From positions 34,593-98,592 of the forward strand of contig JACQWX010000037.1 of the NCBI GenBank assembly GCA_016209035.1: a stretch of 64,000 bases of DNA, read 5' to 3'. The notes beneath the pieces are model-generated. The model made no database searches. It had not been told where the DNA came from and saw nothing but the letters and a program-made list of their open reading frames with translations. A program made the position numbers and the translations under genes. Of the stretch, positions 35,451-42,845 are shown piece by piece. This DNA comes from Elusimicrobiota bacterium (GTDB lineage: Bacteria > Elusimicrobiota > Elusimicrobia > UBA1565 > UBA9628). Positions within the stretch are counted from its first letter, which is position 1. The number at the start of each line of letters is the position of its first letter.

Positions 35451-36950
35451 ATGGGAAGGGATGACGCGGGGACCGACAAGAAGGCAATGCCGCCTCCCGC
35501 GCTGGAGGGCGGGGATCTGGCGGCGGCACAGGAGGCCCTGGGCCACCGCCCGAGCATCAGCATCCGGGCCCGAATCGTCCTGGGGTTCCTCTCCTTCGTG
35601 GCTCTGAGCGTGGCGGCCTCGGCGGCCTCCTGGGTCATCGTCTCGCGCGTCCAATCCAAGCTCCGCTTCCTGGATGCCTGCGGGAACTACGCCTTCGAGA
35701 TCCAGCAGGCGCGGCGCTACGAGAAGAACTTCTTCCTCTACGGCACGAACCTGGCCGACGCCCTGGAGAACATCCAGGCCGCCCGGCAGCTGCTGGGCAG
35801 GGAAAGCGCCGACATCGTGGCGGTGGTGGGCCCGGGGCCGTTCAACACGATGGTCGGGCACGTGGGGCGCTATGAGGAGCTGCTCAAAAGGCTCATCGGG
35901 CCGCAGGGGAAAGGGAGCGGCAGGAGCGCCATCGAGCTCGAGCTCAGGGAGCATGGGGCCCAGATGGTCTCCGTCGCCATGGAGCTCCTCCTGCGGGAGC
36001 GGCGGCGGGTCGAGAGGATGCTGGGCGTGTCGAGGCAGGTGCCCCTGGTCTTCATCCTGGCTCTCCTCGTGCTCGTGGGATTCACCACCCGCTTCCTCAC
36101 CCGGCAGATGCTCGAGCCGCTCAACCGCTTCGTCAGCTACACCGATCGGATCGCCCGCGGAGACTTCACCCCCATCACGCCGGCCAAGCGCTACCGGGAT
36201 GAGTTTTCCAACCTGGCGATGGCCATCAACCTGATGCTCGACAAGCTCAAGAAGCACGAGGAGCAGCTGCTGCAGTCGCGGAAGATGGCGGCCGTCGGCA
36301 ACCTGACCTCGGGGATCGCCCATGAGCTCAACAATCCTCTCAACAACATCAGCCTGACGGCCGAGTCCCTTCTGGACGGTTTCGCGGACATGTCTCCAGA
36401 CGAGAGGCGCCAGCTCCTCCAGGACATCTTGACCCAGACCGAGAGGGCCAGCGGCACGGTGAGGAATCTCCTCGATTTCGCCAGGATGGAGCGGCCCTCT
36501 TTCGTGCCCCTGAGCATCGGAGAGATCGTCGCCACCACCCTGCGCCTGGTGATGAACGAGATCGAGCTCAACAACGTCGTCCTGGCGCGGAAGCTGGACG
36601 ACGGCCTGCCGCCGGTCCTCGGGGATTTCAGCCAGCTGCAGCAGGTCTTCCTCAACCTCTTCCTGAACGCCATCCAGGCGATGCCCCGGGGCGGGAGGCT
36701 GGAGGTCCGGGCGGTCCCCGAGGAGGGCATGCTGCGAGTCGACGTGGCCGACACGGGCCAGGGCATCCCTGAATCCAACATCCCATTCATCTTCGACCCC
36801 TTCTTCACGACCAAGGAGCAGGGGAAGGGCACGGGGCTTGGACTTTCCGTCAGCTTCAACATCATCAAGAAACACGAAGGGAGGATCACGGTGAGAAGCC
36901 GCCTCAACGAGGGGACCACCTTCTCAGTCTTCCTGCCCCTGGCGTCCTGA
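35451..36950 (+). CDS. Sensor histidine kinase (2 TM, HAMP, HisKA, HATPase)
   Basis: H-box SGIAHELNNPLNNI, plus NLFLNAIQAM, DTGQGIP and GTGLGLS. Confidence 0.85.
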   Translation: MGRDDAGTDKKAMPPPALEGGDLAAAQEALGHRPSISIRARIVLGFLSFVALSVAASAASWVIVSRVQSKLRFLDACGNYAFEIQQARRYEKNFFLYGTNLADALENIQAARQLLGRESADIVAVVGPGPFNTMVGHVGRYEELLKRLIGPQGKGSGRSAIELELREHGAQMVSVAMELLLRERRRVERMLGVSRQVPLVFILALLVLVGFTTRFLTRQMLEPLNRFVSYTDRIARGDFTPITPAKRYRDEFSNLAMAINLMLDKLKKHEEQLLQSRKMAAVGNLTSGIAHELNNPLNNISLTAESLLDGFADMSPDERRQLLQDILTQTERASGTVRNLLDFARMERPSFVPLSIGEIVATTLRLVMNEIELNNVVLARKLDDGLPPVLGDFSQLQQVFLNLFLNAIQAMPRGGRLEVRAVPEEGMLRVDVADTGQGIPESNIPFIFDPFFTTKEQGKGTGLGLSVSFNIIKKHEGRITVRSRLNEGTTFSVFLPLAS

Positions 36951-36956
36951 AGACCC

Positions 36957-37901
36957 ATGGGGTTTCACATCTACCTTCCGGTCGCGGGCTGCAGCGTCAA
37001 CATCGCGCTCCTCCTGGGGTTGGGGGGAGTGGTGGGACTACTCTCCGGCCTCTTCGGGGTGGGGGGAGGCTTCGTCCTGACGCCGCTTCTGATCATGATC
37101 GGGATCCCTCCGACCGTGGCCGCCGCATCGGATTCGAACCAGATCGTGGCCGCGTCCGCCTCGGGCATGCTGGGCCATTACCGCCTGGGCAACGTCGACT
37201 TGAAGATGGGCGCCCTCCTGCTCCTGGGGGGCGTCGCCGGCAGCACCCTGGGGGTCGGCCTGATGAAGCTCCTGAGGACGCTGGGCAACGCCGACTTCGT
37301 CATCCTGGTCTGCTATGTCGCCATGCTGGGGCTCATCGGCGGCTACATGTTCCTGGAGAGCCTCTCGAACCTCCGGGGCGCCCCCTCGGCGCGGACGCCC
37401 GCCCGCGCCGAGGCTCCGGCCGCCCGGCCGTCCGTCTTCGCCCGGGCCGTCGGCTCGCTTCCCTTCAAGACAGAGTTCCCGAGGTCGGGCGTCGGGTTCT
37501 CGGCGCTCCTGCCGTTCCTCCTGGGCGCCGTGGTCGGCGTCCTTGCGGCCGTCATGGGGGTCGGCGGGGGCTTCCTGCTCATTCCCGTCATGGTCTATCT
37601 CCTGCGCATGCCCATGCACGTGGTGCTTGGGACCAGCCTCTTCCAGATTTTCTTCACCTGCATCAACGTCACCGTGATGCAGTCCTATCTCAATCGGACG
37701 GTCGACATGCTGCTCGCGCTCATCCTCCTCGTGGGCTCCTCCGTCGGGGCCCAGGCGGGCGTCCGGATCTCGAGAAGGCTCAAGGCCGACCAGATCAAGA
37801 TACTGCTCTCGCTCATCGTGCTCGCCGTCATGCTGTGCATGCTGGGCAGGCTGGTGCTGCACCCGGCCAGCCTCCTGGGCTACGGATCGGGCCATGGGTA
37901 G
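36957..37901 (+). CDS. TauE/SafE (TSUP) family anion permease (second copy)
   Basis: 314 aa with a duplicated motif (GVVGLLSGLFGVGGGFVLTP; GVLAAVMGVGGGFLLIPVMVY). Confidence 0.85.
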   Translation: MGFHIYLPVAGCSVNIALLLGLGGVVGLLSGLFGVGGGFVLTPLLIMIGIPPTVAAASDSNQIVAASASGMLGHYRLGNVDLKMGALLLLGGVAGSTLGVGLMKLLRTLGNADFVILVCYVAMLGLIGGYMFLESLSNLRGAPSARTPARAEAPAARPSVFARAVGSLPFKTEFPRSGVGFSALLPFLLGAVVGVLAAVMGVGGGFLLIPVMVYLLRMPMHVVLGTSLFQIFFTCINVTVMQSYLNRTVDMLLALILLVGSSVGAQAGVRISRRLKADQIKILLSLIVLAVMLCMLGRLVLHPASLLGYGSGHG

Positions 37902-41578: not shown

Positions 41579-41986
41579 ATGGAGATGAGACCGGAGGTGC
41601 TCGTCCTTGACGACGAGGCGATCGTCTGCGACCGGCTGAAGGCCGCCCTGGAGAAGGCCGGATTCGCGGTGGAGACCTACACCGAGAGCGCGCGGGTGGT
41701 CAAGCGGCTCGAGGAGAAGAAGTTCCACGTCGTCGTCACCGACCTCAAGATGAAGGAGTGGGACGGCATCGAGGTCCTCAAGCTGATCAAGACGCGCTCC
41801 CCGGAGACCAAGGTCATCATGATCACCGGGTTCGCCACGGCGGAGAAGGCCAAGGAGGCGCTCGCCCTCGGCGCCCATGACTTCATCGCCAAGCCCTTCA
41901 AGCTGAGCCGGCTGCGCGACATCGTCATCAGCGCCTCCCGGGAGCCGGACGGGGGCGCGCCGCAACGCCCTGAGCTGCCCGGGTAG
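41579..41986 (+). CDS. Single-domain (CheY-like) response regulator
   Basis: VLVLDDEA...VVVTDLKMKEWDG...IAKPF. Confidence 0.88.
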   Translation: MEMRPEVLVLDDEAIVCDRLKAALEKAGFAVETYTESARVVKRLEEKKFHVVVTDLKMKEWDGIEVLKLIKTRSPETKVIMITGFATAEKAKEALALGAHDFIAKPFKLSRLRDIVISASREPDGGAPQRPELPG

Positions 41987-42005
41987 GGGCCTGGAGGAGA
42001 TCGCC

Positions 42006-42845
42006 ATGCCCATCATCACCATTTCCCGCGGCACCATGAGCGGAGGCCAGATGCTCGCCGAGCGCCTCTCGTCGAGGCTCGGCTACCCGACCGTCGGCCG
42101 GGAGGCCATCAAGGACGCGGCCGCGCAGTACGGCATCTCGGAGTGCGTCCTGGAGCGCGAGCTCCTGGAGAAGCCCGGCCTGCTCGACCGGCTCAGGAGG
42201 GAGCGGGGCCTTTACCTGCTCGCCATCCAGTCCGCCCTGGTCACGCGCGCCCTGAAGGGGAGCTTCATCTACCACGGCAACGCGGGCCATCTGCTCCTCA
42301 AGGGGCTTCCCCAGGTCCTGAAGGTCCGCCTGATCGCCCCCCTGGAGTTCCGGGTGGACATGCTTCGCAAGCGGGACAAGGACATGACGGAGGAGCGCGC
42401 GCGGCAGCACATCGCGGAGGTCGACCGCCGGCGGGCCGAGTGGACCATGTTCCTGTACCGGGTGGATTGGAGGGATCCCTCCCTCTACGACCTGGTCCTG
42501 AATCTCGAGTCCATCACGGTCCAGGGCGCCTGCGAGCTCGTCGTCCGCGCCCTCTCCCTGCCCGAATTCCAGGACACCCCGGCCAAGAGATCGGCGTTCG
42601 AGGACTTGGCGCTGGCCTGCCGGGTGCGCACCGAGCTGGCGCTCCACGAGCGCACCAAGGGGATGGAGTTCGAGGTCGAGGCCGCCCGCGGCGTCGTGAA
42701 GCTCTCCGGGCAGTACTACAGCAGCGGCCTGTTCTCCCGGGGCGCCAGCCGGCACAAGGACGAGATCATTTCGGTGGTCAGAGGCGTCGCGGGGGTCGAG
42801 AAGATCGAGGTGGACCTGCGGGAGGCGTCCGTGCCCGTCGATTGA
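42006..42845 (+). CDS. Cytidylate-kinase-like-family domain + BON domain protein (paralog 2 of 4)
   Basis: MPIITISRGTMSGGQMLAERLSSRLGY, YHGNAGHLLLKGLPQVLKVRLIAPLEFRV. C-terminal BON-like EVEAARGVVKLSG...VRGVAGVEKIEVDL. Confidence 0.75.
   Translation: MPIITISRGTMSGGQMLAERLSSRLGYPTVGREAIKDAAAQYGISECVLERELLEKPGLLDRLRRERGLYLLAIQSALVTRALKGSFIYHGNAGHLLLKGLPQVLKVRLIAPLEFRVDMLRKRDKDMTEERARQHIAEVDRRRAEWTMFLYRVDWRDPSLYDLVLNLESITVQGACELVVRALSLPEFQDTPAKRSAFEDLALACRVRTELALHERTKGMEFEVEAARGVVKLSGQYYSSGLFSRGASRHKDEIISVVRGVAGVEKIEVDLREASVPVD

Follow-up and report, generated by a model that had tools for sequence, protein, structure and literature searches.

A seven-gene operon linking a dikinase-like enzyme with a distinct C-terminal domain to CheY-like receivers and a TSUP permease

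A 64,000-nucleotide stretch of DNA from an Elusimicrobiota bacterium (GenBank assembly GCA_016209035.1, contig JACQWX010000037.1, positions 34,593 to 98,592; hereafter the window, whose own numbering is used throughout) carries, at 35451-42845, a seven-gene operon in which a protein resembling phosphoenolpyruvate (PEP) synthase is encoded together with a sensor histidine kinase, a TSUP permease and its exported partner, two CheY-like receivers and a protein resembling cytidylate kinases. We conclude that this gene set is a genuine operon whose core recurs in hundreds of anaerobes, and that the core probably controls the transport of sulfur oxyanions. It is a conserved feature, largely mis-annotated in databases, that is assembled from known parts: a dikinase of the PpsA superfamily, two-component signalling and a TSUP permease. 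The PEP-synthase-like (PEPS-like) protein, judged by its sequence, keeps a competent ATP-grasp domain and a swivel histidine, His511; in the place of the PEP/pyruvate TIM barrel stands a conserved α/β domain with neither a Pfam model nor a structural relative.

The seven open reading frames (ORFs) all lie on the + strand, co-directional and tightly packed, and the successive intergenic distances from gene 1 to gene 7 are +6, -8, +2, -4 (ATGA), +9 and +19 nt. A preliminary description of this DNA had claimed seven same-strand genes with short junctions, and these were found, at -8 to +19 nt. The third-position GC content (GC3) of the ORFs is 0.90-0.96, in sequence of 65% GC, and they are therefore taken to be real genes. 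In order, they encode a sensor histidine kinase (HK) of 499 residues (35451-36950) with HAMP, HisKA and HATPase_c domains and predicted transmembrane (TM) helices; a TSUP/TauE permease of 314 residues (36957-37901; PF01925); an Alph_Pro_TM partner of 241 residues (37894-38619; PF09608, with hydropathy); the PEPS-like 'X, water dikinase' of 857 residues (38622-41195; PF01326 and PF00391); a single-domain receiver of 125 residues, RR1 (41192-41569), whose gene makes the ATGA overlap with that of the PEPS-like protein; a second single-domain receiver, RR2, of 135 residues (41579-41986); and a cytidylate-kinase-like (CK-like)/BON protein of 279 residues (42006-42845; Cytidylate_kin2, PF13189). The permease, the Alph_Pro_TM protein, the PEPS-like protein and RR1 are core components, RR2 and the CK-like/BON protein accessory ones. 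Pfam matched the domains previously assigned to the HK, permease, PEPS-like protein, receivers (Response_reg) and Cytidylate_kin2 protein. No sigma-70 promoters or intrinsic terminators rose above background at the operon ends; for sigma-54 promoters the window contains 10 matches, where chance alone predicts 20, and no match is well placed upstream of the operon; an Rfam search of the whole window gave no regulatory RNA match.

The PEPS-like protein consists of a helical N-terminal extension (residues 1 to ~112), an ATP-grasp domain (128-425; PPDK_N, PF01326, E=1.1e-66), a swivel domain (476-546; PEP-utilizers, PF00391, E=9.3e-17) and a C-terminal domain (~551-857; the C-domain). Pfam assigned nothing to residues ~550-857 and found no match to PF02896, the barrel. 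Conservation was computed on an alignment of 102 full-length family members. The ATP-grasp residues Gly129, Lys131, Arg222-Ser223-Ser224, Glu228/Asp229, Glu397, Gln420 and Arg422 are kept in the family, Gly129 and Glu397 being invariant. In and around the swivel motif VTGVGAVTGHLATVARE, which spans residues 502-518 and places the catalytic His at 511, Gly506, His511, Arg517 and Pro522 are found in 102/102 members and Glu518 in 101. Conservation of the C-domain equals that of this catalytic His loop: His606, Asp607, His613, Pro674, His739, Gly763 and Arg773 are invariant, and Cys602, Arg610, Arg759, Arg770 and Arg772 nearly so.

Resemblance to PEP synthases is limited to the first ~560 residues. 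These align well with PEP synthases, with E values of 1e-81 to 1e-83 against the NCBIfam PpsA models, but the scores with the PpsA equivalog models TIGR01418 and NF005057, 275-279 bits, are far below the cut-offs of 739.75 and 598, and the match covers model positions ~2-468, the N-terminal half. Alignments with PpsA sequences in the PDB (best E=4.5e-53) end at residue ~560. A search with the last 307 residues returned hundreds of proteins at 40-53% identity, in all of which the region directly follows a swivel domain; an exhaustive C-domain profile search gave 1,532 clusters at 50% identity (766 with E<=1e-30), with the domain almost always at positions ~540-860 of a protein of ~850 residues. 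The public annotation of these relatives is 'pyruvate, water dikinase'. A C-domain profile matched no PDB sequence, and NCBIfam likewise held no match to the domain. The AlphaFold (AF2) model of the C-domain, built from 39 sequences (predicted local distance difference test, pLDDT, 83.8; predicted TM-score, pTM, 0.77), has helices packed against antiparallel sheets and is not a (β/α)8 barrel, and Foldseek found no PDB match for it at E<0.001, the best being small chaperone-like folds with TM-scores of at most 0.39. A divergent TIM barrel at the C-terminus is ruled out by Pfam, the NCBIfam scores, the AF2 model, Foldseek and the PDB profile search together, and the earlier view that this is no ordinary PpsA stands.

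The N-terminal extension, ~110 residues long and helical by sequence character, was considered as a possible Hpt domain and rejected: it has no conserved His, and only Phe26 and Leu87 reach 90% conservation or more. In an uncultured Desulfobacterium (locus L083, 605-1639) a 344-residue protein with no Pfam match is encoded between TauE and a REC-PEPS pair, and this begins with a segment sharing 35% identity with the helical extension at the N-terminus of PEPS2, a paralogous enzyme of the window described below; the PEPS2-type extension thus also exists in a separate protein.

The two receivers are 59% identical to each other, and Pfam found no output domain in either besides Response_reg. In receivers encoded after PEPS-like genes, Asp10, Asp11, Asp54 and Lys104 are intact in 64/64 and Thr82 in 63 of the 64 (Ser in the other), and the same five positions are intact in all 10 second receivers, so far as residues can tell marking RR1 and RR2 as phosphorylatable. 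The presumed donor-docking face of RR1-type receivers, comprising Ile14, Val15, Arg18 and Leu19 of α1 together with Thr53, Lys56, Met57, Phe101 and Phe106, is near-invariant, and equally fixed in loci with and without an NtrC-type partner; the distal helices vary. Such a surface argues for a partner that is itself conserved.

That the first receiver is tied directly to the enzyme, as had been suggested from the gene overlap, is now borne out by conserved translational coupling and by natural fusions. In-frame PEPS-like::receiver fusions account for ~15 of the best 120 full-length relatives, plus a fragment (P0027); they belong to several sequence lineages, the receiver is always C-terminal, and neither half has lost a catalytic residue. 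At one fusion locus (L081) the HK-TauE-Alph_Pro_TM genes are retained upstream and a free second receiver lies downstream, with a PTP-like gene nearby, implying that the fused receiver corresponds to RR1. Eight PEPS-REC-PEPS'-PEPS'' arrays provide a further arrangement, in which the enzyme copy that directly follows the receiver no longer has the ATP-grasp residues Lys131, Arg222, Ser223, Gln420 and Arg422. All of these ATP-dead copies still have the GHRE swivel motif, and in seven of them none of the nine C-domain residues scored is changed; the exception, at L052, has R772A. Since their own ATP-grasp catalytic residues are lost, their swivel His must be charged in trans.

The remaining core proteins are membrane-bound. 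In the permease, PF01925 scores 152.3 bits against a gathering threshold of 32.6 and there are multiple hydrophobic segments, conserved at 95% or more over 54 orthologues; the central loop is variable, and no conserved modifiable residue was found over these orthologues in the sizeable soluble loop at ~140-165. The product of gene 3 had been described as an exported protein with a signal peptide and a C-terminal anchor, overlapping the permease gene by 8 nt. All of this proved correct, with the amendment that it belongs to a known family, Alph_Pro_TM (PF09608; 102.2 bits against 24.5). Its score with the narrower 'hypothetical equivalog' TIGR02186, 48 bits, misses the cut-off of 255, and the window protein is hence a divergent branch. 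Hydropathy predicts a signal peptide, a periplasmic domain, a C-terminal TM anchor and a cytoplasmic tail of 3-5 residues, and the overlapping CATGG start is kept in at least 95% of 54 loci. A profile search of PDB sequences yielded no relative, and a literature search on PF09608/TIGR02186 found nothing on function. The HK, outside the core, has by hydropathy two TM helices flanking a periplasmic loop of ~120 residues; its HAMP, HisKA and HATPase_c domains all exceed the Pfam thresholds, and the H-box GIAHELNNPL is present in the translation.

A scan of species-representative genomes gave at least 598 confirmed relatives of the PEPS-like family. Eighty loci were analysed, with order counts made on those that had enough flanking sequence; most are from Thermodesulfobacteriota, with others from Acidobacteriota, Nitrospirota, Zixibacteria, Gemmatimonadota, Planctomycetota and Binatia. 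The exact order TSUP-Alph_Pro_TM-PEPS is found in 60/71 loci, and in 65/76 the next gene after the enzyme encodes a receiver; from these counts the core is defined as four genes, for permease, partner, enzyme and receiver. Two receivers are present in 11/70 loci, and two receivers with a CK-like gene in 9/70. In 13/62 loci the TSUP gene is directly preceded by an HK gene, and in 20/62 by genes for an HK and an NtrC-type regulator; the window operon shows one of two main layouts. Its full seven-gene form recurs in L083, where independent Pfam annotation supports it, in L085, L001-L003, L022 and others. The arrangement is thus found again in dozens of genomes of several phyla, and the preliminary description was right to see a functional system rather than chance adjacency, as the retained core order and the recurrence of the seven-gene layout attest.

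The closest relative, L085 (GCA_043819795.1, JBDREN010000024.1, labelled Elusimicrobiota), has the operon enzyme (PEPS1) at 63% and PEPS2 at 67% identity, and there three modules of the window are contiguous in 16 kb, in the order REC<-HK<-PEPS2, then HK->TauE->Alph_Pro_TM->PEPS1->REC->REC->CK-like->CK-like(481)->TauE(361). After L085 the relatives of PEPS1 fall below 55% identity; therefore either the window lineage is poorly sampled or the L085 bin is mis-assigned.

The CK-like/BON protein is not part of the universal core; about 9-11 of the 70 loci have its gene downstream of that for the PEPS-like enzyme. Cytidylate_kin2 scores 126.8 bits against 28. The motif SRGTMSGGQ (family consensus SRGxxSGG[QE]) has no Walker-A Lys, although the family keeps NMP-kinase-like Arg and Asp residues, and the score with the CMP-kinase equivalog TIGR02173 is 37 bits against a cut-off of 102; on these two grounds a true cytidylate or NMP kinase was rejected. 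In Foldseek the model (pLDDT 84.4) is matched best by 3fdi and 3hdt, uncharacterised PF13189 structures, and then by CMP, shikimate and adenylate kinases. The kinase-like part of the previous assignment is therefore confirmed, and the BON part is supported at the level of fold only: the BON hidden Markov model (PF04972) gives 19 bits on the tail against a cut-off of 27 (OsmY, E=0.013), and the tail of the AF2 model has the BON element order α-β-β-α-β (H192-213, E222-227, E230-237, H247-259, E266-273). Foldseek on the whole model gave no tail-specific match, the search being dominated by the kinase-like domain, and a literature search on the cytidylate-kinase-like family found nothing on function. 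The protein is probably a nucleotide- or anion-binding regulator at the membrane. Elsewhere in the window, at 55124-56791 (-), a 555-residue fusion of Cytidylate_kin2 (144-306) with a C-terminal receiver (422-531) links the CK-like family directly to two-component signalling, and a similar CK+REC ORF occurs in L024.

What might be the cargo of such a system? A link to sulfur-oxyanion transport is plausible because of the window context (sat-aprBA, qmo, dsr, SulP, DASS, two TSUPs and a YeiH-like gene), the DASS/SulP operons of the sister PEPS2 subfamily, and published genetics and proteomics. The location among sat, apr, dsr and qmo genes had already been read in this way, and to that extent the reading holds, but adjacency to sat and apr is not a general feature, as the module is widespread outside classical sulfate reducers. 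In Desulfovibrio, disruption of a 'nitrate cluster' (DVU0251-DVU0245 in D. vulgaris, DvH; Dde_0597-0605 in D. alaskensis, G20) confers strong nitrate resistance (Korte et al. 2014, PMC4001038). This cluster, which its discoverers called 'poorly annotated', encodes TauE, a hypothetical protein, a PtxB-like protein, an HK, a receiver, a protein with PPDK_N and mobile domains, and a phosphatase; mutants in TauE, the adjacent hypothetical gene, the receiver and the dikinase-like gene are all nitrate-resistant, and the G20 mutants have a mild thiosulfate defect; the authors suggested that a leaky thiosulfate transporter is encoded (PMC4001038). The HK of the DvH cluster is a pseudogene, yet receiver and dikinase-like mutants keep the phenotype (PMC4001038). 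The statement that this gene combination had no described function was accordingly too strong, given a cluster of very similar content with a phenotype. In Dissulfuribacter thermophilus, three adjacent proteins, annotated as a 'PEP synthase', a 'TM protein co-occurring with TauE' and TauE, rise together in thiosulfate disproportionation (PMC13490349).

We propose that the operon may be a signalling-plus-transport module. Its transporter would be formed by the TSUP permease and the periplasmic, membrane-anchored Alph_Pro_TM protein, the cargo being most likely an inorganic sulfur oxyanion, with thiosulfate, sulfite and sulfate as candidates. The PEPS-like protein would be an ATP-dependent, AMP-forming enzyme that charges His511 and forms a fixed pair with RR1, to whose Asp54 the phosphoryl group would then pass. 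In this role it would be a phosphodonor independent of histidine kinases, reporting on the cytoplasmic state (ATP/AMP/Pi, or a ligand of the C-domain), while the HAMP kinase, sensing the periplasm, would feed or drain the same pool of receivers, RR1 and RR2. The phosphorylated receiver, aided by the CK-like/BON protein, would set permease activity post-translationally. We infer both the direction of phosphoryl flow and, at the other end of the pathway, the substrate of the permease and transport control as the output; transfer from His511 to Asp54 is the reading we favour, tentatively, holding it to be somewhat short of probable. It is preferred because the domain order of the fusions is like that of hybrid kinases, with the C-terminal receiver placed as phospho-accepting receivers are in hybrid kinases; because the donor-docking face of the receiver is near-invariant; because ATP-dead His carriers adjoin the receiver; and because the HK of DvH is a pseudogene.

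Several observations weigh on the other side. In 61/79 loci an HK is encoded nearby, so that a conventional donor is at hand in most cases. For PEPS2 enzymes there is no dedicated small receiver, and their top 120 relatives include no fusions. Because receivers catalyse phosphorylation of themselves, a mere docking platform is a less fitting role for the C-domain, whose invariant His, Asp, Arg and Cys residues look more like a substrate or ligand site of its own. Many lineages other than classical sulfate reducers also carry the module. Finally, the Desulfovibrio nitrate cluster is likened to this operon by domain annotation and gene lengths only, and two full-length family searches returned no protein named Desulfovibrio vulgaris or D. 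alaskensis.

Should the transfer to RR1 be real, a wider proposal would follow, one that we consider rather doubtful. The PEPS-like family would then be a new class of phosphodonor for receivers, in which a swivel His, loaded by an AMP-forming ATP-grasp, charges a CheY-like receiver without a DHp/CA kinase and so couples energy charge, or a C-domain ligand, to the gating of sulfur-oxyanion carriers (TSUP, DASS, SulP) in anaerobes; in some genomes the phosphoryl group might be passed on to the ATP-dead paralogues, giving a His-Asp-His relay of PEP-utilizer modules.

The same conserved pair can be read in the opposite direction, and this too is a real possibility. The receiver would be the regulator and the PEPS-like protein the enzymatic output: the HK would phosphorylate RR1, RR1~P would switch the dikinase on or off, and the phosphate of His511 would go to a small anion bound in the C-domain, possibly the solute handled by TSUP and Alph_Pro_TM, unless the C-domain is a ligand sensor. 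This is standard two-component logic, with an HK present in most loci, and the window variant has no other output domain. The C-domain residues His606, Asp607, His613, His739 and Arg773 look catalytic and are conserved like the His motif; the ATP-dead paralogues, which keep both the His and the C-domain, would also fit an essential chemistry there; and barrel-less relatives, namely rifampicin phosphotransferase, PigC/RedH and the phenylphosphate and hydroxyphenylethanone dikinases, phosphorylate small molecules (PMC12167813). However, receivers that regulate enzymes are normally N-terminal and every fusion here is C-terminal; no candidate substrate can be named, and no fold relative hints at a chemistry; and, were the HK the sole donor, it would be more difficult to account for the need for the receiver in DvH, whose cluster has an HK pseudogene (PMC4001038).

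A role for the PEPS-like protein as a protein kinase is improbable. Here TSUP, Alph_Pro_TM or the CK-like protein would receive the phosphoryl group of His511~P on one of its residues, which would gate transport, with the receiver a modulator only. The conserved translational coupling of TSUP, Alph_Pro_TM, PEPS-like protein and receiver does suggest a stoichiometric complex, and in DvH and G20 the dikinase-like and permease genes share a phenotype (PMC4001038). The potential targets are nevertheless poor ones: the TSUP loop is variable and offers no conserved modifiable residue, Alph_Pro_TM is almost wholly periplasmic, and the CK-like/BON protein, accompanying the enzyme in so few loci, cannot be a general substrate. 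The preliminary description had raised a kinase acting on the permease or BON partners, and for this we find no support. A conventional PEP synthase whose barrel has diverged and whose neighbours are unrelated genes adjacent by chance, for which the alignment of the first 560 residues and the annotation of the relatives would speak, is contradicted by the sub-threshold equivalog scores over half the model, the absence of PF02896, an AF2 model that matches no barrel, a gene order conserved across phyla and the receiver fusions, and is excluded for practical purposes.

Around the operon, related gene sets recur in the window near 13195-18606, 27670-30357 and 53037-60432, as had been noted, and they are indeed paralogous sets, far beyond chance. 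The first, a sister module at 13195-18606 (-), comprises PEPS2, a Cache/PAS HK and a 186-residue response regulator with a C-terminal extension. PEPS2 (15991-18606, -; 871 residues) has the same architecture as the PEPS-like protein and is 34% identical to it over the full length. Response regulators of PEPS2 modules (window 13195-13755 (-); L085, L086, L087) are 182-189 residues long and share a conserved extension of ~65 residues (LARRSGLSAEIVAAAM) that resembles a short Fis-type helix-turn-helix as in RegA/PrrA/ActR; Pfam gave the receiver only. Elsewhere, PEPS2-type genes head operons of the order PEPS-HK-RR-CBS-DASS. The CBS protein of the window (186 residues, 4870-5430), which lies with a SulP/STAS sulfate permease at 2684-5430 (-), is 47-51% identical to the CBS proteins of those operons, and between it and the PEPS2 module is a type I restriction-modification (R-M) cassette (5427-13198, -; hsdR, hsdS, a YhcG/DUF1016 nuclease and hsdM) with a GC content of 0.597 against 0.66-0.67 in the flanks. 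The CBS and SulP/STAS genes are probably the original downstream end of the PEPS2 module, split off by insertion of this cassette.

The second set, at 27670-30357 (+), consists of a CK-like protein (521 residues, with a hydrophobic C-terminus) and a second TSUP (371 residues; 69% identical to TauE372 of L083), and this pair adjoins the main operon in L085, L003, L022 and L014. The third, at 53037-60432 on both strands, has a receiver, a Cache HK and the CK-like::REC fusion (-), a receiver with a DASS transporter (+), and CK-like, BON and CBS genes (-); its DASS is 68-72% identical to the DASS proteins of PEPS2-type operons. The window modules and the PEPS2-type operons thus share a composition, and from it a wider theme emerges: a PEPS-like enzyme with two-component proteins and small CBS, CK-like or BON proteins beside an anion carrier (TSUP, DASS or SulP). 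A PF03601 membrane protein (YeiH-like, 'conserved hypothetical 698') flanks the operon at 43452-44993 (-), and the same family is found just downstream of PEPS/HK/NtrC genes in a Thermodesulfovibrionales locus (L064, 14137-15552); it may be another transporter of this regulatory neighbourhood. A β-class carbonic anhydrase gene (18734-19399, -) lies directly upstream of PEPS2, between it and qmoB. Upstream of the qmo genes, at 24153-27112 (-), two adjacent ORFs of 614 and 372 residues are without a Pfam match, and their GC3 of 0.75-0.79 is below that of their neighbours.

Just upstream of the operon, a CxxCxxCC gene (PF03692; 34567-35378, +) has an apparent frameshift at ~35115-35125: the domain-bearing frame enters a low-complexity Ser/Thr/Ala tail and the +1 frame continues with a normal-looking C-terminus (MFFMACYDGDKFREFLFESSFFKKF...). 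The gene is either a pseudogene or affected by an error in the sequence. A perfect 12-bp GC-rich palindrome at 34206-34233, CCCCCAGGAGCC-TTCG-GGCTCCTGGGGG, 39 nt past the aprA stop, is probably the aprBA terminator.

The control of sulfate, sulfite and thiosulfate entry and exit in sulfate reducers and related anaerobes is poorly understood, and it sets rates of sulfate reduction and sensitivity to souring-control agents such as nitrate. The module described here is widespread (at least 598 species genomes, 1,532 sequence clusters). The label 'pyruvate, water dikinase' is routinely and wrongly attached to it, and at least one proteomics study has interpreted the adjacent gene as carbon metabolism. 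Because mutants of a similar cluster in two model Desulfovibrio strains already have known phenotypes, direct tests of the hypotheses are possible. If the enzyme phosphorylates the receiver, it would represent a new entry point to two-component signalling; if a small molecule, there would be an unknown phospho-metabolite linked to anion transport.

How does the module compare with systems already described? The Desulfovibrio nitrate cluster may serve as a partial precedent. It shares TauE, an adjacent small hypothetical protein, a HAMP HK, a receiver-only protein and a PPDK_N plus mobile-domain protein with no annotated barrel. It differs in its order (TauE-hyp-PtxB-HK-REC-dikinase-phosphatase), in having a PtxB-like binding protein and a PTP-like phosphatase, in having neither a second receiver nor a CK/BON gene, and in its shorter dikinase-like protein (744 residues). 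A REC-then-PEPS order is also found within the family of the window enzyme (L064 and module II of L083), and L064 has the order HK-REC-PEPS, without PtxB. The DASS/SulP clusters of sulfate reducers, in which Cache kinases and CBS proteins were proposed in 2025 to control sulfate uptake, tuned to external sulfate and energy status, likewise place anion transporters with two-component systems and small CBS regulators, as PEPS2 modules do; their description includes no dikinase-like enzyme, TSUP/Alph_Pro_TM pair or CK-like proteins (PMC11887813). The dikinase-like gene goes unmentioned in comparative papers on sulfate transporters, of which a 2018 survey does not cover regulatory genes.

With PpsA and PPDK the PEPS-like protein shares the order PF01326 then PF00391, the catalytic His and the nucleotide-site residues, and presumably the partial reactions ATP -> AMP + Pi + His~P. 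It departs from them in that the PF02896 barrel is replaced by an unrelated domain of ~300 residues, in its extra N-terminal extension of ~110 residues, and in that its gene belongs to an operon with permease and two-component genes and in some cases is joined to that of a receiver. The barrel-less dikinases (rifampicin phosphotransferase, PigC/RedH, phenylphosphate synthase and the hydroxyphenylethanone kinase HpeHI), which combine ATP-grasp and swivel His with acceptors other than pyruvate, are evidence that one acceptor module can be exchanged for another. They have acceptor domains with no relation to the C-domain and a different domain order, the His domain of Rph and PigC being C-terminal, and none is known with a receiver or permease.

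An analogy for how the module might work is offered by the EI-Ntr -> NPr -> EIIA-Ntr system, where a swivel-His enzyme of the PEP-utilizer family initiates a phosphorelay with a purely regulatory role, its final product acting on ion transporters and sensor kinases through protein-protein contact. There the donor is PEP, not ATP, the carriers are HPr- and EIIA-type proteins, not receivers, and the sequence relation is limited to the swivel domain. Hybrid HKs and His-Asp-His-Asp phosphorelays provide the other comparison. The PEPS-like fusions have no DHp/CA core and carry their His on a swivel domain, yet they follow the same order of ATP-binding module, phospho-His module and C-terminal receiver, and the ATP-dead, His-retaining paralogues resemble the Hpt-like carriers of such relays.

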